A DNA stretch of 64,000 nucleotides from an uncultured Syntrophomonadaceae bacterium (GTDB lineage Bacteria > Bacillota > Dethiobacteria > DTU022). Position numbers and translations under genes: made by a program. The notes beneath the pieces were generated by a model that was not told the DNA's origin, did not search any database, and was given only the letters and a program-made list of their open reading frames with translations. Shown here piece after piece: positions 9,186 through 27,619 of the stretch (its first letter is position 1; each line of letters begins with the position of its first letter). The stretch covers positions 2,591 through 66,590 of the forward strand of contig CAYTER010000006.1 in assembly GCA_964436815.1 (NCBI GenBank). The letters are read 5' to 3'.

Positions 9186-10115
9186 ATGAATATATCAGGC
9201 CGGCCGATTAATATACCCTACAATACGGCGTTTGTTGTCAATCCGACCAGCGGCGCAGGAAATGCAGGGAAGGTATGGCCGCAAATTGCCGAACTGTTGG
9301 ATTACTCCGGACAACGATACAAGGTTTATTTTACCCGCTTTCATGGGGATGGTAGTAATCTGGCTGCAAAGGCAGTGCGAGAAGGGGCTGAGCTTGTTGT
9401 TGCCGTTGGCGGAGACGGAACGCTGAGGGAAGTTGTTAATGGCATCGAGCCCGATCAAACTGTCTTTGCAGTGATACCTCTTGGAACAGGAAATGGATTC
9501 AGACGTGGTTGCGGTCTGCCGGGGCAGTGGCAAAGTGCTTTATATGGCCTGGGACAGTGGCAGCCTCGGAAAATCGATCTTGGAGTGATCAATGGATCAT
9601 ACTTTTTGAATGTTGCTGGAATTGGTTTTGATGCGGCAGTAGCCGAAATGGCATCCGACAAGTACAGGAAAGTTAAAGGTTATACTGCTTACCTGATGGC
9701 CTTCTTTGATGAATTGCAGCATTTTGATCATTTTAGTGCAAAAATAGCAGGCCAAGAGTGGGAAGCGCTACAGCATGACGCCCTGTTGATCCTGGCAGCC
9801 AATGGGCCTTACTATGGAGCAGGATTTAAGATCGCACCCGATGCCGCCATTGATGATGGTAAACTTGATCTGATCATTATTCGCAAACTCAATAATCCTG
9901 AGACGACTTTACTGGCCTTTCAGGCTATGGTTGGGAGACATCTTAACCACCAGGCAGTTATCTCAGCCAAAGTAAAAGAGGTTCATATCGAAGCAGATCA
10001 CCAGGTTCCTCTGCACATCGATGGAGAGATTACCGGTAAGCTCCCGGTGCAGATAAGTGTCAAGGCCGGTGCGTTAAGGATTATTGCGCCGACGGAAACA
10101 AAGGATGACCGGTAA
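9186..10115 (+). CDS. Diacylglycerol-kinase-family lipid kinase (YegS/DagK-like)
   Basis: 309 aa. GGDGTLREVVNG catalytic-domain motif. Confidence 0.85.
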   Translation: MNISGRPINIPYNTAFVVNPTSGAGNAGKVWPQIAELLDYSGQRYKVYFTRFHGDGSNLAAKAVREGAELVVAVGGDGTLREVVNGIEPDQTVFAVIPLGTGNGFRRGCGLPGQWQSALYGLGQWQPRKIDLGVINGSYFLNVAGIGFDAAVAEMASDKYRKVKGYTAYLMAFFDELQHFDHFSAKIAGQEWEALQHDALLILAANGPYYGAGFKIAPDAAIDDGKLDLIIIRKLNNPETTLLAFQAMVGRHLNHQAVISAKVKEVHIEADHQVPLHIDGEITGKLPVQISVKAGALRIIAPTETKDDR

Positions 10116-10134
10116 CTATTTTTACTGCAGCTAC

Positions 10135-10163
10135 TTGATAAGCGCTTTCAGAGTCGGTATAAT
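10135..10163 (+). promoter_or_regulatory. Sigma-A promoter for tRNA-Leu
   Basis: TTGATA (10135-10140), a 17-nt spacer, TATAAT (10158-10163), about 20 nt before the tRNA 5' end. Confidence 0.5.
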
Positions 10164-10182
10164 AACAAGGCGGGCCAATCTT

Positions 10183-10269
10183 GCGAGCGTGGCGGAACGG
10201 CAGACGCGCTAGGTTCAGGACCTAGTGGGCTTAACGCCCGTGGAGGTTCAAGTCCTCTCGCTCGCACCA
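10183..10269 (+). tRNA. tRNA-Leu (anticodon CAG), class II with a long variable arm, CCA encoded
   Basis: Acceptor GCGAGCG/CGCTCGC, anticodon stem-loop CTAGG-TTCAGGA-CCTAG, long variable arm, T-loop GGTTCAAGTCC, 3' ACCA. Confidence 0.9.
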
Positions 10270-10274
10270 TAATA

Positions 10275-10305
10275 TTAAGGCGTCCTCTGTAATAGGGCGC
10301 CTTAA
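10275..10305 (+). terminator. Hairpin terminator after tRNA-Leu
   Basis: TTAAGGCGTCC ... GGGCGCCTTAA, an 11-bp stem with one G-U pair, followed by a T-rich TTATTGCTT. Confidence 0.45.
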
Positions 10306-10348
10306 TTATTGCTTAAAGGTCAAATCTGGTTTGTTGATTACTCTGTGA

Positions 10349-11221
10349 TCAAGATTTTTTAGATAACCCATGCAAGACTAGACTATAAACCGTTTCCAGA
10401 ACTTGGTCAGGGCCATACTTCGCATCTAAAATATCCCTGTAGGAGAAAGTTTCAAGCAGTGAAATAAGGGCGAAACTGGCAATTTCACTGTTAACCGGCC
10501 TGAAATCACCCCTGACTATACCCCTCTCCAGATCTTTAGCCAGTGGATCGACCCAGGCCTTTCTCAAGATTTCTTCTGCCCGCAAACGCTCTTCAATATC
10601 ATCCTGACGCAGTGAATCCTTCAGCAAATTGATTGATGTTAAAACCCTGCTGGAGTGAGCATGACCGGCTTTCCAACGTTTTTCAAGACGCCCCGTCGGT
10701 GTTTTCTCCCGGCGGATGCTATCAAGCGCTCGCTTGGAAAAAGCATCAAAGATACTGCTAAGACAGGTTATGTACAGATCTTTTTTATTCTTAAAATAAT
10801 AGTAGAATGAGGGTTTTGTAATTCCTACGCTGTCCATAATTTCAGCGATGGTAGTTTGACTGTAGCCTTTCCGGAGAAATATTTGCGAAGCCTTCTGAAT
10901 GATTTGTTCCCTGGTTTTTGAATCCGAGTAGTTTCCGGTTTTTCTTTTCAGTTTTTGAACGGATGGCAATTTGGATTTTTGTTCCCAAAGGTTCGCTGCA
11001 TGCGCCAGTGGAATTGCTTCTGCATTGCATTTTTTCAGAAATAACAGGCAGTCAAGATGCTGTTGACTATAATAAGCCTGATTTATGTTTTTATAGACTG
11101 GGGGATGAAGATACTTCATCCTCAGGTAGTAATGAATCAGTTGCTTACTAATCCCTGATCTCTTCGCCAGCTCCCCAATTCTCATTACTTTATCGGATGC
11201 CGCTATTTCCACGATCTTCAC
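10349..11221 (-). CDS. Dual-HTH transcriptional regulator: N-terminal MerR-type HTH fused to a complete TetR/AcrR-type regulator
   Basis: 290 aa. MRIGELAKRSGISKQLIHYYLRMKYL is MerR-like. REQIIQKASQIFLRKGYSQTTIAEIMDSVGITKPSFYYYFKNKKDLY is a TetR N-terminal HTH, followed by a helical ligand-type domain. Confidence 0.8.
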   Translation of the reverse strand: MKIVEIAASDKVMRIGELAKRSGISKQLIHYYLRMKYLHPPVYKNINQAYYSQQHLDCLLFLKKCNAEAIPLAHAANLWEQKSKLPSVQKLKRKTGNYSDSKTREQIIQKASQIFLRKGYSQTTIAEIMDSVGITKPSFYYYFKNKKDLYITCLSSIFDAFSKRALDSIRREKTPTGRLEKRWKAGHAHSSRVLTSINLLKDSLRQDDIEERLRAEEILRKAWVDPLAKDLERGIVRGDFRPVNSEIASFALISLLETFSYRDILDAKYGPDQVLETVYSLVLHGLSKKS

Positions 11222-11349
11222 CCCGCAGTACTGGCACAGAAATTTATATACTTATTATACGTTAACTAGACATATCCTTTATTTATGAGTAAAGATAAGG
11301 CCGCTTGTTAATAATATTATCGAAATATATAGGTGATTAAAAATATTGA

Positions 11350-11390
11350 TTTAATGGGTTCAAAGCAATAGACTAAATATAACCATTAAA
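11350..11390. promoter_or_regulatory. Inverted repeat in the regulator/operon intergenic region (possible operator or 5'-UTR hairpin)
   Basis: TTTAATGG (11350-11357) and CCATTAAA (11383-11390) separated by 25 nt. It ends 13 nt before the ATG at 11404. Confidence 0.25.
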
Positions 11391-11403
11391 CCAAGGGGGT
11401 ACT

Positions 11404-12321
11404 ATGTTAATGACAACCATTAAATTTGACGGTAAAGTAGCTGTAATCACCGGTGCCGGAGGCGGTCTCGGTAAAGCTTACGCCCTGCTGCTGGCATCGC
11501 GGGGAGCAAAAGTGGTGGTCAATGATCTCGGAGGGACATTTGACGGCAGCGGCTCTGACGCCACTCCGGCTCAACAGGTAGTTGATGAAATCAAAGCAGC
11601 CGGCGGTGAAGCGGTTGCCAATTACGACAGTGTGGCGGAATGGGACAGCGCACAAAATATTATTAATACAGCGATTAATCAGTATGGGCGGTTAGATATT
11701 CTGATCAACAATGCTGGTATTCTGCGAGATAAAAGCCTTTTGAAAATGGAGCTGGAAGATTATAGGAAAATAATGTCAGTTCATCTTGACGGAACCTTTT
11801 ACTGTACGAAAGCGGCGTTTGCAATTATGAAAGACCAGACCTATGGCCGGATTGTTTCGACTGCATCGGCTGCCGGCCTTTATGGCAACTTTGGCCAAAC
11901 CAACTATGGGGCTGCGAAAATGGGCATTGCCGGGATGATGAACTGTGTTGCTCAGGAAGGGGCCCGCTACAACATAAAAGCTAATACGATAGTCCCGACT
12001 GCCGGCACCAGGCTGACCTTTACGGTAATGCCCGAAGATGTTATCGGAAAAGTTAAGCCGGATTATGTTGCGCCGGTCGTTGCCTGGCTTTGTTCGGAAG
12101 AATGTACGGAAACCGCAAAGATGATCAGCGCGGGCGGCGGCTATTTCAGCCGGGCTGCCGTAGTTGAAGGCCCCGGGGTAGTATTTGATTCGAACAAAGA
12201 GATCACGATCGAAATGATTGTAGATAACCTTGAACAAATTATGAACCTGGAAGGCGGAAAAGAATTTGCTTCAGCGATGGAGCAGGCTGGCACAGTTCTA
12301 TCGAAAATGAGTATGAGCTAA
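11404..12321 (+). CDS. SDR-family (3R)-hydroxyacyl-CoA dehydrogenase-like protein (MFE-2/17beta-HSD4 dehydrogenase-domain type)
   Basis: 305 aa. TGAGGGLG cofactor motif, NNAGI, and the YGAAK catalytic Y-x3-K. Confidence 0.85.
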   Translation: MLMTTIKFDGKVAVITGAGGGLGKAYALLLASRGAKVVVNDLGGTFDGSGSDATPAQQVVDEIKAAGGEAVANYDSVAEWDSAQNIINTAINQYGRLDILINNAGILRDKSLLKMELEDYRKIMSVHLDGTFYCTKAAFAIMKDQTYGRIVSTASAAGLYGNFGQTNYGAAKMGIAGMMNCVAQEGARYNIKANTIVPTAGTRLTFTVMPEDVIGKVKPDYVAPVVAWLCSEECTETAKMISAGGGYFSRAAVVEGPGVVFDSNKEITIEMIVDNLEQIMNLEGGKEFASAMEQAGTVLSKMSMS

Positions 12322-12370
12322 ATTGAATTAAAATTATAAAGTGAAATATAAATCAGAAAGGAGTTAAATT

Positions 12371-13216
12371 ATGCCGATCGATCCAAAGCTGGTTGGTAAA
12401 GAACTTCCTGCCTTAGAGTTTAATTATACTCAAAAAGATATCATGCTCTATGCTCTCGGTATCGGTGCAGGAGCAGATCCTGAAGACTTGAAATATGTTT
12501 ATGAAAGTGAGCTGGCAGTAATCCCGACTTATGGGGTTATTCCGCCTTTTGGAGCATTATTTAGCATTGTTGGCATGGAAGGGATGGATTTTAATCTGGC
12601 CATGCTGCTTCACGGTGAACAGTACCTGGAGTTAAACAGGGAGATTCCAACTGCAGGAACACTGACTTCCTTTCCCAAAATTGCAGCGATTTATGATAAA
12701 GGAAAGGGAGCGCTGATTGAAATTGAAGTAGAGACCAAGAACAATAAAGGTGAAAAAGTATTTTTTAACCGGTTTAGCACATTTATCCGCGGTGAAGGCG
12801 GTTTCGGCGGAGAAAGGGGGCCTGAACCGGAATTCGATGCTCCTGACCGTAAGCCTGATCGAATAGCAGAAATGAAAACGCTACCCCAACAAGCACTGAT
12901 CTACAGACTCTCCGGTGATTTTAACCCTCTGCATGCAGACCCTGGTTTTGCTGCAATGGGTGGTTTTGAAAAACCGATCTTGCACGGTCTCTGTACTTTT
13001 GGCTTCGCCGGCCGGGCAGTACTAAAAGAGTTTTGTCATAACGATCCGCAAAAATTCAAAGCGATTAAAGTTCGCTTTTCCCGGCATGTTTACCCCGGGG
13101 AAACGATTGTGACCGAAATGTGGCAGGAAAAGGATGACCAGATCATTATACGCTCAAAGACCGCCGAACGTGGAGAATATTGCCTTACTAATGCAGCGGT
13201 CTGGCTAAACCAATAA
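12371..13216 (+). CDS. MaoC-like double hot-dog (R)-specific enoyl-CoA hydratase (MFE-2 hydratase-2 type)
   Basis: 281 aa. [14 protein letters not shown] hydratase-2 motif in the C-terminal hot-dog fold. Confidence 0.85.
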
Positions 13217-13239
13217 ACTGATAAAGGGGTGAACAAAGG

Positions 13240-14706
13240 GTGATTGGTATATGCTCATATGCAGGATATATACCACGATTCCGTTTAAACAGGATGACTA
13301 TCTTCAGCGCTATGGGCTGGCTTAATCCGGCTATCATCATGAATGCTGCCGGTGATAAAGCAGTAGCCAATTTTGATGAAGACGCCATTACCATGGCAGT
13401 TGAAGCGGGTTCCAAATGCCTGCAGGGTTTTGATCCAGGCCAGGTGGGAGCAGTCTATTTCGCTACCACTACCGCTCCTTTCCGGGAGCGGCAGAGCGCC
13501 AATCTAATCGCAGGGGCTTTATCAACCAGTGAGGAAATCAGGACAGCTGATTTCGGCGGATCCGTAAAATCAGGCACAGCAGCGCTGCTGGCTGCCCTGG
13601 AATATGCTGCCGGTGAAGATGGCCGGCAAGCCTTGGCCTGTGCGGCAGATTGCCGGATGGGCAAAGTCGGATCGGTGCAGGAGATGGTTTTTGGTGACGG
13701 TGGAGCAGCAGTTCTCGTTGGCGGTGAGAAGGTTATCGCCGCTTACCGAGGTTCTTACTCACTGGCTTGTGATTTTGTTGATCACCTGCGGGGTTCTAAT
13801 TCAAAATATGACCGGCAATGGGAAGAACGCTGGATCAGGGATCTGGGCTATGATCAGATAATTCCGCAGGCCATCGATGGCTTACTAAAAAAATATCAGC
13901 TGCAGCTCACGGACTTTAAAAAAGTAATCTACCCTTGTTATTACGGCGGGGCCCGGAAAAATATCAATCGCAAGCTCGGCCTTTCACCGGATCAGGTCCA
14001 GGATGACCTGATGATGGATGCCGGCGACACTGGATCTGCCCATCCGCTTCTGATGCTGGCCAGAGCCCTGGAAGATGCTGCTCCCGGAGATCGCCTGCTG
14101 CTGATCAGTTTTGGTAATGGCTGCGATGCGCTGATCTTTGAAGTGACAGAGGAAATCAGAAATTTAAAGGGGCGGCAACGAGTATCCGATTCGATCCTAA
14201 ATCAGGTGGAGTTGGATAACTTTTATAAATACCTGACCTGGCGTGAAATGCTGCCGGTTGATGTCGGTTTGCGCGGTGAAGAGGAAAGACTGACCCGCTG
14301 GTCGCTGGTCTGGCGCAGCCGCCGGGCTATTCTAGGCCTGGAAGGGACCTGTTGCCTGGCATGCGGGACCCAGCAGTATCCACCTCAACGGGTTTGCGTA
14401 AACCCGGATTGTGGCGCAGTTGACCGCATGGAACCGGTTGTTCTCTCGAACAAAAAAGGCAAAATTGTCAGCTTCACTTCCGACCTGCTGGCTGCAACTA
14501 CAAATCCTCCGGCGATCTATGGTAATGTTGACTTTGATGGCGGTGGCCGCTGTATGTTTGATTTCACCGATTGCATCCAGGAAGATCTCGCAGTCGGAAA
14601 AAACGTCCGCTTTTCCTTCAGAATTAAGTATTATGATCCGAAGCGCGATACTACATTTTATTTCTGGAAAGCAGTCCCAACCGGGGAGGTGACAGTTAAT
14701 GGCTGA
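13240..14706 (+). CDS. HMG-CoA-synthase-fold (thiolase-superfamily) domain fused to a DUF35 zinc-ribbon/OB-fold domain. The condensing-enzyme catalytic residues appear to be substituted.
   Basis: 488 aa, GTG start. The N-terminus IGICSYAGYIPRFRL...NFDEDAITMAVEAG...ALACAADCRMG is HMGCS-like. The C-terminus has CLACGTQQYPPQRVCVNPDCG (DUF35 zinc ribbon) followed by an OB-like segment. Confidence 0.8.
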   Translation: MIGICSYAGYIPRFRLNRMTIFSAMGWLNPAIIMNAAGDKAVANFDEDAITMAVEAGSKCLQGFDPGQVGAVYFATTTAPFRERQSANLIAGALSTSEEIRTADFGGSVKSGTAALLAALEYAAGEDGRQALACAADCRMGKVGSVQEMVFGDGGAAVLVGGEKVIAAYRGSYSLACDFVDHLRGSNSKYDRQWEERWIRDLGYDQIIPQAIDGLLKKYQLQLTDFKKVIYPCYYGGARKNINRKLGLSPDQVQDDLMMDAGDTGSAHPLLMLARALEDAAPGDRLLLISFGNGCDALIFEVTEEIRNLKGRQRVSDSILNQVELDNFYKYLTWREMLPVDVGLRGEEERLTRWSLVWRSRRAILGLEGTCCLACGTQQYPPQRVCVNPDCGAVDRMEPVVLSNKKGKIVSFTSDLLAATTNPPAIYGNVDFDGGGRCMFDFTDCIQEDLAVGKNVRFSFRIKYYDPKRDTTFYFWKAVPTGEVTVNG

Positions 14707-15910
14707 TGGTATAAAAGATAAGGTAGCCATTCTTGGCATGGGTTGCTCGGTTTTTGGAGAACGGTGGGAGGATGATTCCTCGGATCTTCTGCTGGAAGCG
14801 TTTCTCGAGTGTATCGAAGACGCCGGCTTGGAAAAGAAAGATATCAATGCAGCCTGGATTGGCAATCATATTGACGAAATCAGCATCGGCAAAGGTGGAT
14901 GCTATATTGCCAATGCCTTGCATCTTCCCTATATTCCGGTTACCAGGGTGGAAAATTTCTGTGCTTCCGGTACTGAAGCTTTCCGCGGAGCCTGCTACGC
15001 GGTCGCATCCGGAGCATATGATATTGTACTGGCTGCCGGAGTGGAAAAACTAAAAGATGTTGGGTACGGAGGATTACCGGATTCACCAATCTTCGGACAG
15101 CTGGCGAGGTTAATTAGCCCCAATGCGACAGCTCCAGGTCTTTTCGCCCAACTGGCCACAGCTTATGCAGCAAAGTACAATCTGCCGATGGACCAGGTTA
15201 AAGAAGCAATCACCCACATATCATGGAAGAGCCATCAGAATGGAGCTAAAAATCCCAAAGCGCATCTGCGTAAAGAGATTACCACCAACCAGATATGCGA
15301 ATCGCCATTTGTAGCTTACCCGCTTGGCTTGTTCGATTGCTGCGGAGTGAGCGACGGCTCAGCTATGGCAATTGTTACCACGCCGGAAATAGCAGCAAAG
15401 TTAAAGCCAAAACAGGAGCTGGTTACCGTTAAAGCGCTGCAGATTTCTGTAAGCTCCGGTGAAGAGTTGATTCACAATCGCTGGGATGGCAGCGGATTAA
15501 TGACAACGCAGCATGCTGCCCGCAAAGCTTATGCCGAAGCGGGTATTAACAATCCGCGCCAGGAATTGGGAATGATCGAAGTTCATGACTGTTTTTCAAT
15601 TACCGAGATGGTTACCATGGAAGATCTGATGATTTCTCCACCGGGAAAGGCGCCGGAAGATATCCTCAGTGGTTTTTACGATCTCGATGGTGAAGTGGCC
15701 TGTCAGCCTGATGGTGGACTAAAGTGCTTTGGCCATCCGATCGGCGCCTCAGGGTTAAGAATGATCTATGAAATATATAATCAGCTGCTCAGACGCTGGC
15801 CTGAAGATAGGCTGGTAAAAAACCCGAAGTTAGGCCTAACTCATAATCTGGGGGGCATTCCTGCCCAGAATGTTTGCAGTATTTGTATCCTTGGTTTAGA
15901 GGAAAGTTAG
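14699..15910 (+). CDS. SCP-x/nonspecific-lipid-transfer-type thiolase (the DUF35-associated type)
   Basis: 403 aa. Nucleophile context VENFCASGTEAF, EVHDCFS, and [14 protein letters not shown]. Overlaps the upstream gene by 8 nt (ATGGCTGA). Confidence 0.85.
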   Translation: MADGIKDKVAILGMGCSVFGERWEDDSSDLLLEAFLECIEDAGLEKKDINAAWIGNHIDEISIGKGGCYIANALHLPYIPVTRVENFCASGTEAFRGACYAVASGAYDIVLAAGVEKLKDVGYGGLPDSPIFGQLARLISPNATAPGLFAQLATAYAAKYNLPMDQVKEAITHISWKSHQNGAKNPKAHLRKEITTNQICESPFVAYPLGLFDCCGVSDGSAMAIVTTPEIAAKLKPKQELVTVKALQISVSSGEELIHNRWDGSGLMTTQHAARKAYAEAGINNPRQELGMIEVHDCFSITEMVTMEDLMISPPGKAPEDILSGFYDLDGEVACQPDGGLKCFGHPIGASGLRMIYEIYNQLLRRWPEDRLVKNPKLGLTHNLGGIPAQNVCSICILGLEES

Positions 15911-15962
15911 GGTTTTAGTGAATAAAAGCGCTTAGTCGTGAAAGCTCTGCTGACTGGAGATG

Positions 15963-16003
15963 AGGATGCAGTGATCTGTTCCTTTGAAAAGATCCTGCAT
16001 CCT
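15963..16003 (+). other. Strong intra-operon hairpin (possible attenuator, terminator or processing site)
   Basis: AGGATGCAG-T-GATCT...AGATC-CTGCATCCT (9+5 bp) followed by TTCTC. It lies in a 230-nt gap between the thiolase and CoA-transferase genes. Confidence 0.35.
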
Positions 16004-16149
16004 TTCTCAGTCATTGAAAACTTCTTGTGGACATTGTGTAAGAATCGTAACGGTAAAAACTGATCATCATGTAGAAGGGAATAATATGGAGCTAGAGAAT
16101 AAGATAGTGTAGTTCAGCCTAGCTGTCATCAAAACGGGAGGTGGTTTTC

Positions 16150-17172
16150 GTGACCGATTTCACAGAACTGTTAAAAGAAAAAAACGTTACCTATAAACCG
16201 GCAGGATGCGGTAAAATTTACACTGATCCGGATGCTGACCGGGCAAGGGTATACTTTCGTGATCAGAAGCCGCGTAAAATGATTGAAAAGACGATGTCGG
16301 TTGAAGATGCGGTAAAAAGTTTAATTAATGACGGAGATTATATCGGTGTTGGTGGTTTTGGCGCCAACCGTATCCCGACAGCAGTGCTGCACGAAATGGT
16401 CAGGCAGGGAAAGAAAAACTTAGGCCTGGCCGGACATACGGCAACCCACGATTTTCAGATCCTGGTTGCTGGAAAATGTGTTAACCGGTGTGATGTTGCC
16501 TATGTTGTCGGCCTCGAGGCCCGGGGTCTTTCAAAAATTGCCCGCAAAGCAATTGAAAGCGGTGAAATTGATACAACAGAATGGACCAACGCGGCCCTGA
16601 CCTGGCGCTATAAAGCAGCGGCGATGGGTATTTCATTTATGCCAGTTCGCTGTATGCTTGGCACCGATACACAAAAATATAGCGCTTCCATGGAAATAGA
16701 ATGTCCTTTTACCGGTACCAAGTACCTGGCCGTCCCTGCTTTATTTCCCGATGTTGGGATTATCCATGTTCATCGGGCTGATGTTTACGGCAACTGTCAG
16801 ATTGATGGGATAATGGTAGCTGACAGTGATTTGGCCAGGGCAGCTAAAAGACTGATCATAACCACTGAAAGACTGGTGCCGAACCTGGTTATTCGCCGTG
16901 AGCCGACGCGTACGGTTATCCCTTATTATTTAGTTGATGCCGTGATCGAAGTGCCCTTTGGCAGTTATCCCGGGAACATGGCCTACGAGTATTTCAGTGA
17001 CGAGGACCATCTGCGTGATTGGCTGAAAGCAGAAAATGATCCCGATGAGCTTAAAGCTTTTCTGAAACGTTATATCTATGATGTAAAAGATTTTAACGGA
17101 TACTTAGATCAGGTTGGCGGTATGGCAAGATTGCAGGAACTGAGATACCAAGAAAATATGGTAGAAAAATAA
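16150..17172 (+). CDS. Family-I CoA-transferase subunit A (glutaconate CoA-transferase GctA-like)
   Basis: The ORF track starts at GTG 16141. I prefer GTG 16150, 8 nt after GGGAGG. DGDYIGVGGFG motif. There is a roughly 50-aa N-terminal extension before the conserved core. Confidence 0.85.
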   Translation: MTDFTELLKEKNVTYKPAGCGKIYTDPDADRARVYFRDQKPRKMIEKTMSVEDAVKSLINDGDYIGVGGFGANRIPTAVLHEMVRQGKKNLGLAGHTATHDFQILVAGKCVNRCDVAYVVGLEARGLSKIARKAIESGEIDTTEWTNAALTWRYKAAAMGISFMPVRCMLGTDTQKYSASMEIECPFTGTKYLAVPALFPDVGIIHVHRADVYGNCQIDGIMVADSDLARAAKRLIITTERLVPNLVIRREPTRTVIPYYLVDAVIEVPFGSYPGNMAYEYFSDEDHLRDWLKAENDPDELKAFLKRYIYDVKDFNGYLDQVGGMARLQELRYQENMVEK

Positions 17173-17204
17173 TACCGATACCGATCTTTAGGAGGTAATA
17201 AATT

Positions 17205-17975
17205 ATGGAATATAATGACATGGAGCTGATGATCTGTCTGGCTTCCCGTTATCTTGAAGATGACAGTATTGTCGTGGTTGGAACCGGTGCCCCCTGTGCG
17301 GCCGCTATGCTGGCGCAGAAGCTGTATTCTCCCCGCCTGATGATCATGTTTGAAGCGGGCGGTATAGGACCTCTTCTGCCGTCAATGCCCATTTCGGTTG
17401 GTGATTCAAGGACATTTTACAGGGCGTTAGCCGCCAGCAGCATGCCTGAAATCATGGAAACCTGCCAGCGAGGCCTGGTCGATTACACATTTTTAGGCGG
17501 TGCTCAAATTGATCAATATGGCAATATAAACTCCACCATGATTGGAGATAATTATAAGACTCCGAAAGTCCGCTTTCCCGGGAGCGGTGGCGCCAATGAT
17601 CTTGGATCACTCTGCTGGAAGACAATGATGATAACCCCCCAGGATCAGAGACGTTTTACGGAAAAGATCGATTTTGTAACAACTCCGGGTTACCTAACCG
17701 GTCCAGGAGCAAGGGAAGAAGCCGGTCTGCCGGCCGGCAGCGGTCCGTATAAAGTGATTACGAATCTCTGTGTGATCGGTTTCGACGAAGAGACTAAAAG
17801 GATGAAGGTTGAAAGCATGCACCCCGGTATTACCAGAGAAGCAGTTAGCGAGAATACCGGATTTGAACTTCTCTGGTCAGACAGCTTGACGGAAAGCGAT
17901 CCACCAAGCACTGATGAGCTGAATATTTTACGCAGTGAAGTAGACCCTTACCGTTATATAATCGGCAGGGAATAA
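17205..17975 (+). CDS. Family-I CoA-transferase subunit B (GctB-like)
   Basis: 256 aa. Candidate catalytic Glu in [11 protein letters not shown], plus GSGGANDL. Confidence 0.85.
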
Positions 17976-18024
17976 TATTGAAGAATTTAAAATTAAGCGC
18001 AGTACACAGCAGGAGGGACAGGCT

Positions 18025-19203
18025 ATGAGAGAAGTTGTTGTGATCAGTGCAGTACGGACAGCAGTTGGAACATTCGGCGGATCACTTAAAGACATCAGCC
18101 CGGTAGATTTGGGAGCCACGGTTATTAAAGAAGCGCTTGGACGAGCCGGAGTTAAAGCAGAACAGGTTGATGAAGTGATCATGGGCTGTGTGCTGCAAGC
18201 CGGATTCGGACAGAATATTGCCCGCCAGGCTGCCCTGAAAGGAGGGCTGCCGATCGAAACCCCATGTCTGACCATCAATAAAGTCTGCGGGTCTGGTTTG
18301 AAAAGTGTTACGCTTGCGGCATCGATCATTGCTGCCGGGGATGCTGATATTATCGTCGCCGGAGGTACGGAAAACATGAGTGCCGCTCCTTACCTCAATT
18401 TTGGAGCCCGCTGGGGGTTGAGAATGGGTGACAGCACGATGATCGATTCCATGGTCAAAGACGGTTTGTGGTGCGCTTTTAACGACTACCACATGGGAAT
18501 GACAGCAGAAAACCTGGCCGTAAAATTTAATATAACCCGTGAACAGCAGGATCAATTTGCTTTAGAAAGTCAGGAAAAAGCGCAAAAGGCGATTGAAAGC
18601 GGTCGTTTTAAAGATGAAATAGTACCGGTTATGGTGCCGCAGAGAAAAGGCGATCCTCTTGTTTTTGCTGTAGATGAACACCCCCGGATGACTAATATGG
18701 ACTCTTTGGCCAAACTTAAACCTGCTTTTAAAAAAGACGGCACTGTGACAGCGGGCAACGCTTCGGGTATAAACGACAGTGCAGCAGCTATAGTAGTAAT
18801 GAGCAGTGATAAGGCAAAAGAACTTGGATTAAAGCCTTTTGCCCGGATAAAAAGCTTTGCGTCAGAGGGAGTGGATCCCTCGATCATGGGAACCGGACCG
18901 ATACCGGCGACCCAAAAAGCTCTGGCAAAAGCCGGCTGGTCGGTAAGCGACCTGCAGTTGATTGAAGCAAATGAAGCTTTTGCGGTGCAGGCTTTAGCAG
19001 TTTCACAGGAACTCGGTTTTGATCCCTCAATTGTTAATGTTAACGGCGGTGCGATTGCTATCGGTCACCCGATTGGGGCCAGCGGAGCGCGTATCTTTGT
19101 TACCCTGCTGCATGAGATGCATAAACGAGAAGTCCAGCGGGGTCTTGCCACACTTTGTATCGGCGGAGGACAGGGTATTGCCTGTGCTGTAGAAATGTTA
19201 TAA
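18025..19203 (+). CDS. Acetyl-CoA C-acetyltransferase (biosynthetic/degradative thiolase II)
   Basis: 392 aa. [11 protein letters not shown] (Cys nucleophile), [19 protein letters not shown], and LCIGGGQG. Confidence 0.95.
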
Positions 19204-19223
19204 AAACAGGAGGTTTATGGCAA

Positions 19224-20156
19224 ATGGCTGTTAATATGAAAGGAAAAGATCTGCTTTCAATTCATGATTTGAGCAGGGAAGAAGTCGAACAGGTATTAGA
19301 TACAGCTCACATTTTGAAAATGAAAAATAAGCTGGGTGAGATTTATCATCCCTTGAAGGGGAAAACTCTGGGAATGATCTTTCAGAAGTCATCCACCAGG
19401 ACCAGAGTTTCTTTTGAAGTAGGAATGTGGCAGTTAGGCGGGTATGCGCTTTTTTTAAGCTCCAATGATCTGCAATTGAACCGTGGTGAAACTATTGCCG
19501 ATACGGCCAGAAATTTAAGCCGTTACCTGGATGGAATTATGATTCGCACTTTTTCACACCAGGACGTAATTGATCTTGCTGAATACAGTTCGGTTCCGGT
19601 GATAAACGGCCTTACCGATCTGTTGCATCCCTGCCAGGTTTTAGCCGATCTTTTTTCAATCAGGGAGAAAAAACAGAAACTGGAAGGGTTGAAACTGGCC
19701 TATATCGGCGATGGCAATAACATGGCTCATTCGCTGATGTATGGTGGTGCTAAAGCAGGCATGCATATCGTCATTTGCTCACCGTCCGGATTTGAGCCGG
19801 ATCCCGAAGTAACCCGTCTTTCGCGCCTTGACGCTACCCAGACCGGCGCCACGATCACGATTCAGGACGACCCGGTCGAAGCTGTTCAGGCGGCAGATGT
19901 TATTTATACTGACGTCTGGACCAGCATGGGCATGGAAGCTGAATACGAAGAGCGGCTGAAAAGCTTTGCCCGTTACCAGCTTAACAGCGCCCTGCTGGAA
20001 AAAGCGCGGGAAGATGTATTGGTGATGCATTGTCTGCCTGCTCACCGCGGAGAGGAGATCACTGATGAAGTGATCGATGGACCACGTTCAATCGTTTTTG
20101 ATCAGGCCGAAAACCGCCTGCATGTCCAAAAAGCGATTATGTCCCTCGTCATGTAG
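19224..20156 (+). CDS. argF: Ornithine carbamoyltransferase
   Basis: The ORF track start (19155) overlaps the thiolase. ATG 19224 lies 10 nt after AGGAGG. Motifs SSTRTRVSFE, HPCQVLAD, DVWTSMG and HCLPAHRGEE. Confidence 0.9.
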   Translation: MAVNMKGKDLLSIHDLSREEVEQVLDTAHILKMKNKLGEIYHPLKGKTLGMIFQKSSTRTRVSFEVGMWQLGGYALFLSSNDLQLNRGETIADTARNLSRYLDGIMIRTFSHQDVIDLAEYSSVPVINGLTDLLHPCQVLADLFSIREKKQKLEGLKLAYIGDGNNMAHSLMYGGAKAGMHIVICSPSGFEPDPEVTRLSRLDATQTGATITIQDDPVEAVQAADVIYTDVWTSMGMEAEYEERLKSFARYQLNSALLEKAREDVLVMHCLPAHRGEEITDEVIDGPRSIVFDQAENRLHVQKAIMSLVM

Positions 20157-20176
20157 CAGGCCTCTTTGCCGCTGAA

Positions 20177-20521
20177 TCAAAGTTCAAAGGACAGGCCGAT
20201 TACTGCGGAAGCCTTGATTATAACCTTTTTTTCATTGCCGGTATCGATAAAAATGGTGCCGGCATTTTCGTCTAATTTATAAGGCACCCCGCTTAAACTG
20301 CTGCGCCCCGAATCGGTGAGGAGCGTGAAAAGAAGGTTTTTATGATCGTGAAGAGCCTGTTCGAGGATCTGCTGTTTTTCCGCTTGCAGCTGTTCATCAG
20401 CCAGCGGTTTGCGCTGTTCTTCGCAGCGCGCTTTGGCTGCAGCGTGCTGCTGCAGGTTGCCGCAGTGCTCGGGCAGCATCATCCTGCTGCAGGCAAATTG
20501 CTGGTTAAATTTCCTGCTCAT
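20177..20521 (-). CDS. YolD-like protein (accessory partner of Gram-positive Y-family polymerases)
   Basis: 114 aa. MMLPEH motif near the N-terminus. ATGA overlap with the polymerase gene. Confidence 0.7.
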   Translation of the reverse strand: MSRKFNQQFACSRMMLPEHCGNLQQHAAAKARCEEQRKPLADEQLQAEKQQILEQALHDHKNLLFTLLTDSGRSSLSGVPYKLDENAGTIFIDTGNEKKVIIKASAVIGLSFEL

Positions 20522-21900: not shown

Positions 21901-23088
21901 ATGGACAAGCCACTGTCTGGATTAAAGGTAGTTGATTTGAGCCGTTTTATCGCCGGGCCTTACTGTACGATGAAACTCGGTGATATGGGAGCGGACGTAA
22001 TTAAAGTGGAGACACCGGGGAGGGGGGACGATTCCCGTGAACTTGGACCGCCTTTCCTGGAAGGCGAGTCAGCTTACTATATGTCCTTTAACCGCAACAA
22101 AAAGAGCATCACCTTAAATCTCAGGGAAGCAAAGGCGCGGGATATCTTACAGCAGCTAATTGCTGAAGCTGATGTGTTCGTCGAAAACTTCCGTATCGGG
22201 GTTACCGCTCAAATGGGGCTGACCTACGAAGATGTAAAAAAGATAAAGGAAGATATTATTTATTGTTCAATCACCGGCTATGGCCATAATAGTCCCTACC
22301 GGGAGAAACCGAGTTTTGATGTTATGATCCAGGGCGAGGCTGGTTTGATGAGTATCACCGGGTTTCCAGACGGTCCGCCTCAACGCCTCGGGGTGGCCAT
22401 CGCCGATATTTTAGGTGGTTTTCATGCTGTCGAGGGTATACTTTTGGCATTGCTGGTAAAAAATAGAAGCGGCAAGGGTCAGTTTGTCGATGTGTCGCTG
22501 ATGGATTCGATCATTGCTATATTAACTTATCAGGCGGGCAATTTTCTGGCAACCGGTAGAGCACCAGGCCGCGTTGGCAATCGGCATCCAATGATCACCC
22601 CTTACGAGAGTTTTGAAACAGAAGACGGTTACGTGATCTTTGCGGTCGGCAACCAGCGCCTGTGGGAGAGTTTTATCAAAGCGTTGGGGAAGGAAGAACT
22701 TAATGAAGATCCACGCTTTGCTGATATGAAAAGCCGTAACCAGAATCCGGCTGAGTTGAAGGCTATTATTGAAGATCTCACCCGGCGGAAAACCACCGAA
22801 AAGTGGGTGGAGATAATGGAAAAAGCCGGGGTGCCCTGCGGCAGGATCAGGACCATTGATCAAGTCCTGACTGATCCCCATGTGGATATTCGCGAAATGG
22901 TTGTCGAAACAGCTCATCCACTGGCCGGTAAAGTCAAGCTGATTGGCGTTCCGACCAAGCTATCCCTTACTCCCGGCGCCGTTACCCTGCCACCGCCAAC
23001 ACTTGGCCAGCATACAGAGGAAATCTTAGTCAGCCTTGGGTTAACACAAAAAGAAATCAGTGATTTACGGGAAAAAGGTGTTATATAA
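21901..23088 (+). CDS. Family-III (CaiB/BaiF/Frc-type) CoA-transferase
   Basis: 395 aa. LSGLKVVDLSRFIAGPYCTMKLGDMGADVIKVE and AIADILGG (catalytic Asp context). Confidence 0.9.
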   Translation: MDKPLSGLKVVDLSRFIAGPYCTMKLGDMGADVIKVETPGRGDDSRELGPPFLEGESAYYMSFNRNKKSITLNLREAKARDILQQLIAEADVFVENFRIGVTAQMGLTYEDVKKIKEDIIYCSITGYGHNSPYREKPSFDVMIQGEAGLMSITGFPDGPPQRLGVAIADILGGFHAVEGILLALLVKNRSGKGQFVDVSLMDSIIAILTYQAGNFLATGRAPGRVGNRHPMITPYESFETEDGYVIFAVGNQRLWESFIKALGKEELNEDPRFADMKSRNQNPAELKAIIEDLTRRKTTEKWVEIMEKAGVPCGRIRTIDQVLTDPHVDIREMVVETAHPLAGKVKLIGVPTKLSLTPGAVTLPPPTLGQHTEEILVSLGLTQKEISDLREKGVI

Positions 23089-23977: not shown

Positions 23978-24203
23978 TCAACACAAAAAATTAGCTTTAA
24001 AATTATTTACTTGTAATAAAGGTATTTGATGCGGACCATTGAATTAACTAAAATTAAGAAAAAACAGTATTCACTAAATCTTTTAAGTTCATAGATTCAG
24101 TATATGTTGATCTTTGGTTAAGCAAAAACTTGAAGGAGGTGATAGGAAGAACTAGAAAGGCAGGCAGTTTGTATTTTAATATCTTAGAAGGAGGACTAAA
24201 AGT

Positions 24204-25568: not shown

Positions 25569-25595
25569 ATCTTTAAATTGAAATGCAGTTTTTAC

Positions 25596-25633
25596 AAAAA
25601 GAGAGGCAGGTATTCGACCTGCTTCTCTTTTTT
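25596..25633 (+). terminator. Rho-independent terminator after the permease gene
   Basis: AGAGAGGCAGGT-ATTCG-ACCTGCTTCTCT flanked by an A-run and a T-run, so it is potentially bidirectional. Confidence 0.6.
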
Positions 25634-25695
25634 AATAGTACTGTTTTGAGCCTTGGTACTGGGTGATTATCCGGGATGGTTTTCAGGGAAAATAA

Positions 25696-27393: not shown

Positions 27394-27619
27394 CCCTTTT
27401 TATAGTCAGGACAAGTCGTGCAACGGGAGGTAAACGCTGTTAATTAGTTTGTAGCATATTTACAAAGGTTAAACAATATTTTAGTGATATAATCTAAAGG
27501 AAATTCTTAATAAATGTTTAATTTTTAAAATTGTCGATGCAAATCTAAAATAATTGGGTCGTTAAGCAAAAATGATCTGTTTCTAAAAATTCAAATTAAA
27601 AAGCAGGAGGTTGTTATTT

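Follow-up and report, generated by a model that had tools for sequence, protein, structure and literature searches.

Within the window (the whole 64,000-nucleotide stretch of DNA that was analysed), a forward-strand open reading frame at 13240-14706 begins with GTG and encodes a 488-amino acid putative scaffold protein. An HMG-CoA-synthase-like (PhlA-like), thiolase-fold domain (13240..14253, residues 1 to ~338) is joined by a linker (14254..14337, ~residues 339-366) to a DUF35 rubredoxin-like zinc ribbon (14338..14418; Pfam zf-ChsH2, residues 367-393, with C372, C375, C386, and C391) and a DUF35 OB-fold domain (14446..14682; Pfam OB_ChsH2_C, residues 403-461). The N-terminal domain reads ATTT at residues 75-78, GSVKSGT at 107-113, and VIYPC at 229-233, and the zinc ribbon reads CLACG (372-376) and CVNPDCG (386-392), all at the positions given in an initial annotation that had claimed, from a by-eye alignment, loss of the catalytic Glu, Cys, and His of HMG-CoA synthase. 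Pairwise phmmer alignment and a profile built from 20 diverse relatives place E82, C114, H238, and N270 of HMGCS at T77, V109, P232, and D263 of the scaffold, and the two registers agree against four structures (6esq_I, 1tvz, PhlA, and MucA). The by-eye alignment was therefore not shifted, and the Asn is lost in addition to the three residues named. As the cysteines closest to position 109 are C60 and C134, there is indeed no Cys within 20 residues of it, and the whole protein contains only two histidines, H182 and H268.

The N-terminal domain matched PhlA (E 1e-64), archaeal HMGCS (6esq_I, 3e-60), and S. aureus MvaS (1tvz, 3e-27). Its NCBIfam score was 208.6 bits for PRK04262, under that model's cutoff of 244, versus 45 bits for the bacterial model TIGR01835, and none of the NCBIfam HMGCS equivalog models reached its cutoff on this protein. 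While the register of the original comparison to MvaS-type enzymes held, the type did not; on these scores the domain is archaeal-type or PhlA-type, not MvaS-type. An AlphaFold2 model of moderate quality (pLDDT 70.6, pTM 0.78) was structurally closest to PhlA (5mg5_A, E 4e-27, TM 0.74), followed by archaeal HMGCS (6et9_I, TM 0.79). The pLDDT fell below 50 over residues 320-360, and the linker, a low-confidence prediction, is poorly conserved in alignment A2 of scaffold relatives. Pairwise, profile, and structural comparison thus all show loss of the tetrad, and the interpretation of the HMGS-like domain as a pseudoenzyme covalently joined to DUF35 is supported. The C-terminal third, already read as a DUF35 zinc ribbon plus OB fold, matched the DUF35 chains 6esq_E (2e-22) and PhlB (3e-15), both across profile positions 345-470, and ChsH2-DUF35 (2e-11).

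The next gene (14699-15910, forward strand) has an 8-nt overlap (ATGGCTGA) with the scaffold gene, as had been reported, and each gene has its own Shine-Dalgarno sequence: AGGGGTG, 9 nt 5' of the GTG, for the scaffold and GGAGGTG, 8 nt 5' of the ATG, for its partner. It encodes a 403-amino acid SCP2/archaeal-type thiolase, intact as claimed, with ENFCASG at residues 85-91 (Cys88), HDCF at 296-299 (H296 and C298), and CFGHP at 343-347 (G345-H346-P347). It scored 635.8 bits on NCBIfam PRK06157, above the cutoff of 403. Matches in the PDB were to archaeal thiolase (6esq_A, 5.5e-59, 203 bits), BbsB (7pxp_C, 1e-37), and PhlC (8e-22, 81 bits), and the score against the BbsB model was 134 bits, with a cutoff of 750. 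A retro-aldol (Ltp2-like) activity appears unlikely because Cys88 is kept, and the retro-Claisen alternative raised for the complex is thiolysis by another name.

Published precedents and conservation of the family

Liao et al. 2026 (Nat Commun 17:2196, PMC12960953) mined 1,030 bacterial HMGS/ACAT/DUF35 loci. In the complex purified from Pseudomonas fluorescens (PfACAT/HMGS-DUF35), as in the window, a fused HMGS-DUF35 protein lacks E-C-H-N and the adjacent thiolase retains the Cys, HDxF, and GHx motifs, with the His at residue 294 in PfACAT and at 296 in the window thiolase. That complex thiolysed acetoacetyl-CoA, an activity abolished by H294Y, but made no HMG-CoA and formed no acetoacetyl-CoA from acetyl-CoA; it was termed an evolutionary intermediate without a pathway (PMC12960953). 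As this architecture has been described and assayed, the window pair adds to a family already known and widespread in bacteria, and we infer its orthology to the P. fluorescens complex from shared features only. Neither has PKS or NRPS neighbours, and CoA-dependent thiolysis is expected of both; PfACAT/HMGS-DUF35 is from Pseudomonadota, whereas the window pair is from Bacillota (Syntrophomonadaceae).

The initial annotation had proposed an undescribed scaffolded thiolase or retro-Claisen complex. Reading it as a scaffolded complex is sound in kind because the parts match those of the archaeal thiolase/HMGCS/DUF35 complex, but "undescribed" does not stand, given the P. fluorescens complex, PhlA and MucA, and the list published by Krishna et al. 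in 2010 (PMC2954200) of proteins in which DUF35 is fused to a thiolase-superfamily, SDR, SCP2, or hot-dog domain. The archaeal complex has the same three folds and the same thiolase Cys/HDCF/GHP motifs, and is the closest solved relative of both the window thiolase and the DUF35 part. As Glu, Cys, His, and Asn are all gone from the HMGS part in the window, however, it can neither catalyse a second condensation nor channel a product to HMG-CoA. In the archaeal complex DUF35 is free, whereas in the window it is fused, and a mevalonate-pathway context is lacking there.

The initial annotation had also asked how widespread the fusion is; the family comprises 556 clusters at 50% identity, almost all fused to DUF35. 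No Glu occupies position 77 in any of the 69 locus sequences or 134 representatives, and neither Cys at 109 nor His at 232 occurs in the residue counts, which for the 134 representatives give the eight commonest residues. The four zinc-ribbon cysteines are invariant in alignments A1 and A2 and present in 122-129 of the 134 representatives. In the dead domain, DED46-48 is invariant in all 134 and E83-R84 is also strongly conserved; these motifs may have a role beyond filling space, such as CoA/acyl binding or regulation. C233 directly adjoins the lost His, E83 lies 6 residues past the lost Glu, and each is at least 90% conserved in the clade of the window, which would fit a domain that is still an enzyme, with a relocated site (e.g., C233, E83, or H268) yielding HMG-CoA or a related branched product. 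We consider this extremely improbable: more distant members carry Ala, Gly, or Ser in place of C233, the canonical tetrad positions are lost across the family, the HMGCS equivalog scores fall under their cutoffs, mutating all four tetrad residues inactivates archaeal HMGCS, and the P. fluorescens complex produced no HMG-CoA (PMC12960953).

Among the partner thiolases, Cys88 and HDCF are invariant (58/58) and GHP is present in 57 of 58, with short overlaps or gaps relative to the scaffold gene, as in translational coupling. These motifs bear on a second alternative, a C-acyltransferase like PhlACB (PpATase, PDB 5M3K/5MG5; structure published in PMC6392133) or MucABC (SmaATase, PDB 9VBO), Friedel-Crafts enzymes in which the only active site, as proposed for the window pair, is on the thiolase-like subunit. 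Their PhlA and MucA subunits are known tetrad-less, non-catalytic HMGS paralogues within thiolase/DUF35 complexes (PhlA was recognised as an inactive thiolase-superfamily member already in 2010; PMC2954200) and are the closest solved relatives of the window domain. PhlA is its best sequence and structure match and shares the N270-to-D substitution. An acetyl group from acetyl-CoA would here pass via Cys88 to a non-CoA small-molecule acceptor, but we regard this as very unlikely. PhlC and MucB, which use non-CoA acceptors, have lost the HDxF that the window thiolase keeps as HDCF, and the window thiolase matches archaeal thiolase far above PhlC. In addition, PhlACB and MucABC have a separate DUF35 chain and a secondary-metabolism context, whereas the window pair has no PKS or NRPS genes nearby and lies amid acyl-CoA metabolism, and the fused-type P. 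fluorescens complex acted as a thiolase, in contrast to PpATase and SmaATase (PMC12960953).

Operon and gene context in relatives

The best functional clue is the surrounding operon. Upstream of the pair, on the forward strand, lie an MFE-2-type (3R)-hydroxyacyl-CoA dehydrogenase of the SDR family (11404..12321, 305 aa; PDB 2et6_A 2.5e-134, human HSD17B4 1zbq 3e-89, rat 1gz6 3.3e-89), whose VVVNDLGG motif suggests NAD dependence, and an MFE-2-type 2-enoyl-CoA hydratase 2 (12371..13216, double hot-dog, 281 aa; Pfam MFE-2_hydrat-2_N and MaoC_dehydratas; human MFE-2 hydratase-2 1s9c 2.8e-74). Downstream, also on the forward strand, are the alpha (16141..17172; Pfam CoA_trans, PDB 1poi_A 6.3e-40) and beta (17205..17975; 1poi_B 4.4e-49) subunits of a glutaconate-CoA-transferase-type CoA-transferase; the Glu of IMFEAGG in the beta subunit aligns with the Glu of GctB IIVESG, where the decarboxylase AibB has no Glu. 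Three genes downstream of the pair, a class II (AtoB/PhaA-type) acetyl-CoA acetyltransferase (18025..19203, forward strand; Pfam Thiolase_N 359 bits and Thiolase_C) scored 499.8 bits on NCBIfam TIGR01930, above the cutoff of 240.55. A divergently transcribed regulator (10349..11221, reverse strand) fuses a MerR HTH (Pfam MerR_1, 13-80) to a TetR domain (TetR_N, 107-150) that resembles the acyl-CoA-sensing FadR type, with 45.9 bits on the Bacillus-type FadR model of NCBIfam, under its cutoff. Its position is kept in loci L001, L002, L004-L006, L013-L015, L018, and L045. No SCP2 domain was found in the window operon, nor any acyl-CoA dehydrogenase or enoyl-CoA reductase, so the operon by itself fixes neither a complete oxidation cycle nor its direction.

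Among 52 loci that retain 3 kb or more of flank, the thiolase gene adjoins the scaffold gene in 51, spanning Bacillota, Actinomycetota, Desulfobacterota, Chloroflexota, Pseudomonadota, and one archaeon. The order SDR-MaoC-scaffold-thiolase is kept in 14/14 close relatives and recurs in Achromobacter (L053) and Phreatobacter (L081), the latter with an additional acyl-CoA dehydrogenase. In the group at 55-67% identity, SDR is present in 4 of 17 loci and MaoC in 2, and most Actinomycetota members have no MFE-2-type partners nearby; the association thus marks particular clades and does not define the family. Domain fusions join the same parts: scaffold with SDR and SCP2 (P0125, whose SDR domain is 54% identical to the window SDR), scaffold with SDR (P0133), and scaffold with two SCP2 domains (P0124). 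In L082, a hydratase-2/SDR/SCP2 polyprotein and an ACOX-like dehydrogenase adjoin the pair, and neighbours at other family loci include acyl-CoA dehydrogenases, ETF, crotonases, and acyl-CoA synthetases.

Such contexts bear on whether the pair is an evolutionary leftover, an archaeal-type HMGS/ACAT/DUF35 complex that lost HMG-CoA synthesis and joined no defined pathway, leaving a generic acetoacetyl-CoA thiolase on a vestigial scaffold. Liao et al. read in this way both the P. fluorescens complex and 1,001 loci without biosynthetic neighbours (PMC12960953), and the bare pair stands alone at many Actinomycetota loci. This reading is nonetheless quite unlikely for the window, as purifying selection acts strongly on the dead domain, which keeps long stretches unchanged from phylum to phylum, the family holds 556 clusters, and the pair lies within conserved beta-oxidation operons, is fused to MFE-2-type SDR and SCP2 domains elsewhere, and has a separate class II acetoacetyl-CoA thiolase already encoded in the window.

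Proposed function of the pair

The pair probably acts as a scaffolded 3-ketoacyl-CoA thiolase within an (R)-specific beta-oxidation module. We infer that the two products would form a heteromeric enzyme acting in the thiolytic direction, as the fused P. fluorescens precedent cleaved acetoacetyl-CoA and made no HMG-CoA (PMC12960953). The thiolase would be the sole catalytic subunit, with Cys88 as acyl-accepting nucleophile, His and Cys of the HDCF loop in acid-base roles, and the GHP histidine at the oxyanion site. The HMGS-like domain would perform no chemistry and would pair with the thiolase as a structural partner, forming the second wall of a shared CoA-binding chamber, after the solved archaeal, PhlACB, and MucABC complexes. 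The fused zinc ribbon and OB fold would clamp both thiolase-fold proteins, with stoichiometry fixed by fusion and translational coupling. A scaffolded thiolase is consistent with MucB, which is insoluble or inactive without its partners, and with Sulfolobus, where a ketothiolase is physically linked to an (R)-specific SDR and a MaoC dehydratase through a DUF35 protein (bioRxiv 10.1101/2024.07.05.601840).

Other known systems share parts of this arrangement. In eukaryotic peroxisomal MFE-2 (HSD17B4) plus SCPx thiolase, hydratase-2, (3R)-hydroxyacyl-CoA dehydrogenase, and SCP2-type thiolase act in the same reaction order, and some members of the scaffold family carry fused SCP2 domains; the window polypeptides are split, however, and the dead HMGS/DUF35 scaffold is prokaryote-specific. 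BbsAB benzoylsuccinyl-CoA thiolase (PDB 7PXP), Ltp2-ChsH2(DUF35), and Sal-Shy also place DUF35 on an SCP2-type thiolase-fold enzyme in CoA-thioester catabolism, but an HMGS-like partner is missing from all of them. In BbsAB the DUF35 protein, BbsA, is free; in ChsH2 and Shy, DUF35 is joined to a MaoC hydratase; and the steroid side-chain aldolases Ltp2 and Sal are retro-aldolases. The "archaeal fatty acid synthase complex" of Sulfolobus acidocaldarius (KT/DUF35/ACR/MaoC-HCD) resembles the window in that thiolase and DUF35, its assembly hub, are co-encoded or assembled with a MaoC hot-dog enzyme as well as an (R)-specific SDR. It has no HMGS-like subunit, however, and is biosynthetic, with an NADPH-specific reductase and an enoyl-CoA reductase, whereas the window SDR appears NAD-type and is encoded alongside a CoA-transferase and a degradative thiolase.

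The same window complex could also run in the condensing direction, as CoA-dependent, ACP-independent chain elongation (reverse beta-oxidation or FAS-like), with acetoacetyl-CoA from the class II thiolase and the scaffold channelling the unfavourable Claisen product to the reductase. The thiolase, DUF35, (R)-specific SDR, and MaoC dehydratase are identical in kind to the parts of the archaeal complex, the ancestral archaeal HMGCS complex serves to pull an unfavourable condensation, and acyl-CoA dehydrogenase is absent from the operon. In Syntrophomonadaceae, such reactions run near equilibrium, and butyrate or hexanoate and PHA are made via (R)-3-hydroxyacyl-CoA, which would also favour this direction. 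We consider it unlikely, as the operon lacks an enoyl-CoA reductase, VVVNDLGG would be typical of NAD-dependent MFE-2 dehydrogenases rather than the NADPH-specific archaeal reductase, the CoA-transferase suits substrate activation, acyl-CoA dehydrogenase, ETF, and acyl-CoA synthetase adjoin the pair in relatives, and the P. fluorescens complex given acetyl-CoA formed no acetoacetyl-CoA (PMC12960953).

The beta-oxidation reading instead draws on the MFE-2-type SDR and hydratase-2, the gene order conserved in relatives, the scaffold/SDR/SCP2 fusions, the acyl-CoA dehydrogenase, ETF, crotonase, and acyl-CoA synthetase neighbours, and the Glu kept by the CoA-transferase beta subunit. A free acid would be activated by the GctAB-type CoA-transferase, 2-enoyl-CoA would be converted to 3-oxoacyl-CoA by hydratase-2 and the NAD-type dehydrogenase, both presumably recruited to the scaffold, the scaffolded thiolase would cleave the 3-oxoacyl-CoA, and the class II thiolase would split the last acetoacetyl-CoA. 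What is new here is the operon context, which the main text of Liao et al. does not mention (PMC12960953): the pair follows an MFE-2-type dehydrogenase and hydratase-2 within a beta-oxidation operon, where it would carry out thiolysis within an (R)-specific, MFE-2-like module in a probable Syntrophomonadaceae host.

The fused scaffold protein and its catalytic residues

The 488-aa product of the gene at 13240-14706 (+ strand), hereafter the scaffold, is encoded by a single open reading frame with Pfam matches to ACP_syn_III_C, zf-ChsH2 and OB_ChsH2_C and with PDB matches to HMG-CoA synthase (HMGCS) and PhlA over residues 2-336 and to DUF35 proteins over residues 358-481, in agreement with the initial annotation, which had placed an HMGS-like domain and DUF35 on one chain. 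The scaffold and thiolase motifs quoted there were each recovered exactly where it had put them; in the scaffold these are ATTT (residues 75-78), GSVKSGT (107-113), VIYPC (229-233), CLACG (372-376) and CVNPDCG (386-392). Matches of the DUF35 part by profile were to 6esq_E (2e-22), PhlB (3e-15) and ChsH2-DUF35 (2e-11), and its four zinc-binding cysteines are conserved across relatives. The NCBIfam models for HMG-CoA synthase all scored under their cutoffs (PRK04262, 208.6 versus 244; TIGR00748, 153.5 versus 353; TIGR01835, 45.2 versus 360). On profile comparison, the N-terminal two thirds of the scaffold are assigned to the archaeal-type HMG-CoA synthase lineage, with only about 45 bits for the bacterial MvaS model TIGR01835.

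In order to check the alignment register, pairwise phmmer alignments and a profile of 20 relatives with identities as low as 30% (alignment A2) were used, and both gave the same register against archaeal HMGCS (6esq_I, 3e-60), S. aureus MvaS (1tvz, 3e-27), PhlA (1e-64) and MucA (6e-39). Thr77, Val109, Pro232 and Asp263 of the scaffold align to the catalytic Glu82, Cys114, His238 and Asn270 of 6esq_I, the E-C-H-N tetrad in the numbering of Liao et al. (PMC12960953). The loss of the Glu/Cys/His triad, originally read by eye, is thereby borne out by two alignments, with no catalytic Glu, Cys or His in register; every Cys is more than 20 residues away from position 109, and the entire scaffold contains only two histidines. 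An AlphaFold model comparison had been proposed as a further check, and the AlphaFold2 model (pLDDT 70.6, pTM 0.78) matched PhlA, then archaeal HMGCS, then MucA, which makes PhlA the best PDB match to the HMGS-like domain both by sequence (1e-64, profile) and by fold (4e-27). The domain falls below every cutoff for HMG-CoA synthase (EC 2.3.3.10), lacks that enzyme's catalytic residues and is predicted to be catalytically dead.

Residues at the catalytic positions were counted in 69 sequences of related loci and in 134 full-length representatives of 50%-identity clusters, with the counts for the latter limited to the eight most frequent residues at each position. Neither set has Glu at position 77, which is occupied by Thr, Ala, Ser, Leu or a similar residue. 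Leu, Val, Ile, Gln or the like occupy position 109, and Pro, Tyr, Ala, Ser or the like position 232; no Cys was counted at the former and no His at the latter, either in the 69 locus sequences or among the eight most frequent residues of the 134 representatives. Judging from these alignments, loss of the tetrad is a property of the whole family rather than of the window sequence alone. The DED motif D46-E47-D48 (13375-13383), which the family has in common with HMGCS and PhlA, is invariant (134/134 representatives), and E83-R84 (13486-13491), directly after the lost Glu position, is nearly invariant. That the HMGS active site has instead been relocated within the domain is extremely improbable, as there are no conserved candidate residues to carry it; C233, E83 and H268 were considered as a new site and rejected because they are not conserved beyond the clade of the window protein.

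The partner thiolase and relatives of the pair

The scaffold gene overlaps the gene for a 403-aa thiolase (14699-15910, + strand) by 8 nt (ATGGCTGA), as had been reported, with a good Shine-Dalgarno site ahead of both starts. The description of this thiolase as intact also held, with ENFCASG at residues 85-91 (Cys88), HDCF at 296-299 and CFGHP at 343-347 (GHP 345-347), and with an NCBIfam PRK06157 'acetyl-CoA acetyltransferase' score of 635.8 bits, above the cutoff of 403. Its nearest solved relative is 6esq_A from the archaeal thiolase/HMGCS/DUF35 complex (5.5e-59), and other PDB matches were to BbsB (1e-37), PhlC (8e-22) and Ltp2 (6ok1_A, 1.7e-14). Cys88 and HDCF are present in all 58 thiolases encoded immediately downstream of a family member and GHP in 57 of them, and the distance between the two genes in these 58 pairs clusters at -8, -4 and 0 to +4 nt.

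The fused architecture, whose spread had been left to be checked, proved to be very widespread. A word-indexed search gave more than 2,700 matches, the best 120 of which are all fused proteins of about 485-490 aa, and when 1.84 billion representatives were searched exhaustively, 556 clusters were recovered at E <= 1e-30 and 1,765 at E <= 1e-10, with nearly all of the best 150 matches forming one stretch over residues 1-481. Relatives in genome matches share 64-85% identity in Syntrophomonadaceae and other Bacillota, to which the window itself most probably belongs, about 60-66% in Actinomycetota/Geothermincolia, 50-58% in Desulfobacterales, 45% in one archaeon, 41% in Achromobacter and 31-37% in Dehalococcoidia, Acidobacteriota and marine Gammaproteobacteria. 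A thiolase gene adjoins the scaffold gene in 51 of the 52 loci that have 3 kb or more of flanking sequence. One 723-aa cluster representative (P0224) was considered as a further fusion and set aside as a probable chimera or miscall, because its added ATP-grasp and molybdopterin-binding domains are unrelated and DUF35 is missing.

Relation to described DUF35 complexes

The structural reading of the initial annotation, a dead HMGS-like domain with DUF35 and a thiolase, was right, but its claim that such a scaffolded complex is undescribed fails because the architecture and its relatives are already covered by published work. Fusions of DUF35 proteins to thiolase-superfamily, SDR, SCP2 and hot-dog domains were listed by Krishna et al. 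in 2010 (PMC2954200), who also recognized PhlA as an inactive thiolase-superfamily member of the PhlACB complex, the structure of which has since been published (PMC6392133). Liao et al. (2026, PMC12960953) report the structure of MucABC (9VBO), the absence of the E-C-H-N tetrad from MucA and PhlA, the mining of 1,030 bacterial HMGS/ACAT/DUF35 loci, and the purification and assay of a Pseudomonas fluorescens complex (PfACAT/HMGS-DUF35). That complex has a fused HMGS-DUF35 protein without the tetrad and an ACAT that retains Cys, HDxF and GHx; it formed neither HMG-CoA nor acetoacetyl-CoA from acetyl-CoA, it cleaved acetoacetyl-CoA thiolytically, and its activity was abolished by H294Y.

The window genes have all the defining sequence-level features of the PfACAT/HMGS-DUF35 type, namely the fusion, the tetrad loss, a thiolase with Cys, HDxF and GHx, and the lack of PKS/NRPS neighbors, a match made on the published description. 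A search seeded with the Achromobacter homologue returned no Pseudomonas-labelled protein among its best 120 matches. The archaeal mevalonate complex differs in having an active HMGCS and a free DUF35 protein, where the window pair has a dead HMGS-like domain and a fused DUF35. The Friedel-Crafts acyltransferases PhlACB and MucABC also have a tetrad-less HMGS-like subunit; an acylase activity of this kind is nevertheless very unlikely for the window pair, whose thiolase retains HDCF, where their thiolase-like subunit lacks HDxF (PMC12960953), and whose gene context conflicts with such a role. Benzoylsuccinyl-CoA thiolase BbsAB has a free DUF35 subunit, BbsA, and the window thiolase, next to a DUF35 fused to the HMGS-like domain, reaches 134.4 bits against the cutoff of 750 for the BbsB model NF053628. 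The Ltp2/Sal retro-aldolases have DUF35 on a MaoC hydratase and are not known to carry the nucleophilic Cys, whereas the MaoC protein of the window (12371-13216) has no DUF35 and the thiolase retains Cys88. Literature searches on Syntrophomonas with HMG-CoA synthase found nothing, and those on DUF35, thiolase, MaoC and anaerobic beta-oxidation found steroid, PAH and archaeal work only.

The operon and its proposed role in (R)-specific beta-oxidation

The pair lies in a co-directional operon on the + strand, in the order SDR (11404-12321), double hot-dog MaoC protein (12371-13216), scaffold, thiolase, two-subunit family I CoA-transferase (16141-17172 and 17205-17975) and class II thiolase (18025-19203), with a divergent MerR/TetR-fusion regulator at 10349-11221 (- strand). 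The SDR is matched to MFE-2-type (3R)-hydroxyacyl-CoA dehydrogenases (2et6_A, 2.5e-134; human HSD17B4, 3e-89), and its motif VVVNDLGG suggests NAD dependence; the MaoC protein matches MFE-2 hydratase-2 (1s9c, 2.8e-74). The CoA-transferase resembles glutaconate CoA-transferase (1poi_A, 6e-40; 1poi_B, 4e-49). An AibAB-type decarboxylase or IpdAB-type hydrolase was considered for these genes and rejected, a genuine CoA-transferase being more likely because the match to GctAB is much stronger and because the Glu of IMFEAGG in the beta subunit aligns with that of IIVESG in GctB, which we take to be catalytic, a position at which the decarboxylase AibB differs.

Pfam searches of most large ORFs between 639 and 29176, excepting 9186-10115 and 19155-20156, found only acyl-CoA metabolism, housekeeping and purine-related genes and no PKS/NRPS near the pair, and no mevalonate genes were found among the annotated window ORFs. 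Downstream of the operon, and before unrelated genes, lies an ornithine carbamoyltransferase-like ORF (19155-20156, + strand; by eye from its translation) that was called mechanically from a TTG with a 49-nt overlap of the class II thiolase end; its true start is probably the ATG near 19227 (MAVNMKGKD...). Farther along, a family III CoA-transferase, an AllH-like protein, a xanthine/uracil permease, a PucR-type regulator and a CoA-ligase-domain protein (21901-29176) resemble a catabolic cluster of purine or oxamate type, unrelated to the pair; the family III CoA-transferase is also kept downstream in three related genome loci (L001, L002, L004). On the other side, a tRNA-Leu(CAG) (10183-10269, + strand) followed by a terminator-like hairpin with a 13-bp stem (10274-10306) sits between ORF 9186-10115, diacylglycerol-kinase-like by eye, and the divergent regulator. 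Rfam matches were tRNAs only, and promoter and terminator scans of 10000-20500 gave counts near shuffled expectation and were uninformative.

All 14 close relatives that have sufficient flanking sequence carry SDR, MaoC, scaffold and thiolase genes together, and of the 52 loci flanked by at least 3 kb, 31 have an SDR homologue and 17 a MaoC gene. The same four-gene module recurs in Achromobacter (L053, gene content from tblastn). From called genes, Phreatobacter (L081) has an acyl-CoA dehydrogenase and a hydratase-2 divergent from SDR, scaffold and thiolase, and a metagenomic locus (L082:4284-10640) has an ACOX-like dehydrogenase and a 709-aa hydratase-2/SDR/SCP2 polyprotein ahead of the pair, the latter predicted from its domains to be a bacterial MFE-2-like enzyme with inverted domain order. 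Three cluster representatives are Rosetta-stone fusions of the scaffold, with an MFE-2-type SDR and SCP2 (P0125, 911 aa), with an SDR (P0133, 800 aa) and with two SCP2 domains (P0124, 722 aa). The SDR domain of P0125 shares 54% identity with the SDR of the window, and the two SDR fusions would argue for proximity of SDR and scaffold. In other relatives the pair is accompanied by acyl-CoA dehydrogenases, ETF, crotonases, (S)-type 3-hydroxyacyl-CoA dehydrogenases and acyl-CoA synthetases, most of them identified by eye in the translations of representatives.

Other neighborhoods vary. Actinomycetota/Geothermincolia relatives carry a conserved 111-aa ORF directly upstream of the scaffold gene (L059:7514-7849; L026:5935-7491; also L024, L031-L033, L038, L039), which has no Pfam match and is preceded by a gene that by eye looks like a B12-binding radical-SAM protein; since MFE-2-type genes are absent from these loci, the pair may serve a different pathway there. 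Syntrophomonas sp. MAGs (50% identity) have an HpaB/4-hydroxybutyryl-CoA-dehydratase-family gene ahead of the pair (L049:~200-1690, L050:6303-7808, L054) and next a gene for a large membrane protein that, by eye, may be a transporter. In a Syntrophomonadaceae subset (L006, L013, L014, L015, L018, L045), the CoA-transferase and class II thiolase downstream of the thiolase are replaced by a crotonase-like gene, a CrtI/amine-oxidase-like FAD oxidoreductase and an FNR-like FAD/NAD/2Fe-2S reductase (e.g., L015:11531-13141, L014:13262-14446), the two oxidoreductases having been searched with Pfam, and an acyl-CoA-synthetase-like gene is added in L006, L014, L018 and L045. These replacements suggest a different or additional route of substrate activation and desaturation.

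The most likely reading is that the complex catalyzes the thiolysis in an (R)-specific, MFE-2-like beta-oxidation module encoded by the window operon. A condensing role in reverse beta-oxidation finds a precedent in Sulfolobus, where a KT/DUF35 pair, with DUF35 as assembly hub, binds an (R)-specific SDR and a MaoC dehydratase (bioRxiv 10.1101/2024.07.05.601840), a set of genes that also co-occurs in the window operon. The Sulfolobus complex, however, uses an NADPH-specific reductase and a partner enoyl-CoA reductase, whereas the SDR motif here suggests NAD, no enoyl-CoA reductase was found in the operon, the neighbors in relatives are catabolic, and the P. fluorescens complex showed no condensation when assayed (PMC12960953), all of which makes condensation unlikely. 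A role in beta-oxidation differs from the view of Liao et al. (PMC12960953), who regard the P. fluorescens complex as an intermediate in evolution that no pathway has yet taken up; the main text of their paper makes no mention of hydratases or MaoC genes and does not discuss beta-oxidation neighbors. The window operon, its conservation and the SDR and SCP2 fusions argue instead that the fused complexes serve (R)-specific beta-oxidation. That the complex is purely vestigial is rather less probable than a condensing role, given that the dead domain is strongly conserved and that operons and fusions are conserved as well.

From the anatomy, conservation, synteny and fusions observed, we infer that scaffold and thiolase form a complex, that it works in the thiolytic direction and that SDR and hydratase dock on it. 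The thiolase would carry all of the chemistry, with Cys88, HDCF for acid-base catalysis and GHP as oxyanion hole, while the dead HMGS-like domain and fused DUF35 would form the frame of the quaternary structure and probably one half of the chamber that binds CoA. Such thiolases may need this frame, being otherwise insoluble or inactive, by analogy with MucB, which is so without its partners (PMC12960953). The CoA-transferase would feed the beta-oxidation module and the class II thiolase would complete the pathway; going by the analogy with MFE-2/SCPx and by the GctAB type of the transferase, its substrates may be branched or dicarboxylic acids. More tentatively, the scaffold may be the hub of a bacterial beta-oxidation metabolon, holding the SCP2-type thiolase, docking SDR, hydratase-2 and, where present, SCP2, and passing the 3-oxoacyl-CoA of a non-standard substrate (2-methyl-branched, dicarboxylic or cyclic acyl-CoAs) through a shared CoA chamber.

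With the architecture already known, the remaining interest lies in the consistent link to MFE-2-type beta-oxidation, in misleading annotations and in the question of substrate. The scaffold represents a pseudoenzyme kept for architecture, a putatively dead condensing enzyme under strong selection in many phyla as the predicted obligatory partner of a live thiolase, and the scaffold-thiolase module would be an abundant catabolic module of anaerobic fatty-acid degraders. If the (R)-specific beta-oxidation role is true, "HMG-CoA synthase" annotations of scaffold genes in genomes are misleading and could falsely imply a mevalonate pathway in Syntrophomonadaceae, Geothermincolia, Desulfobacterales and many Proteobacteria. 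The metabolon, if it exists, would correspond, in bacteria and on the catabolic side, to the archaeal DUF35-mediated FAS complex, and would be a relative of peroxisomal MFE-2/SCPx among prokaryotes.
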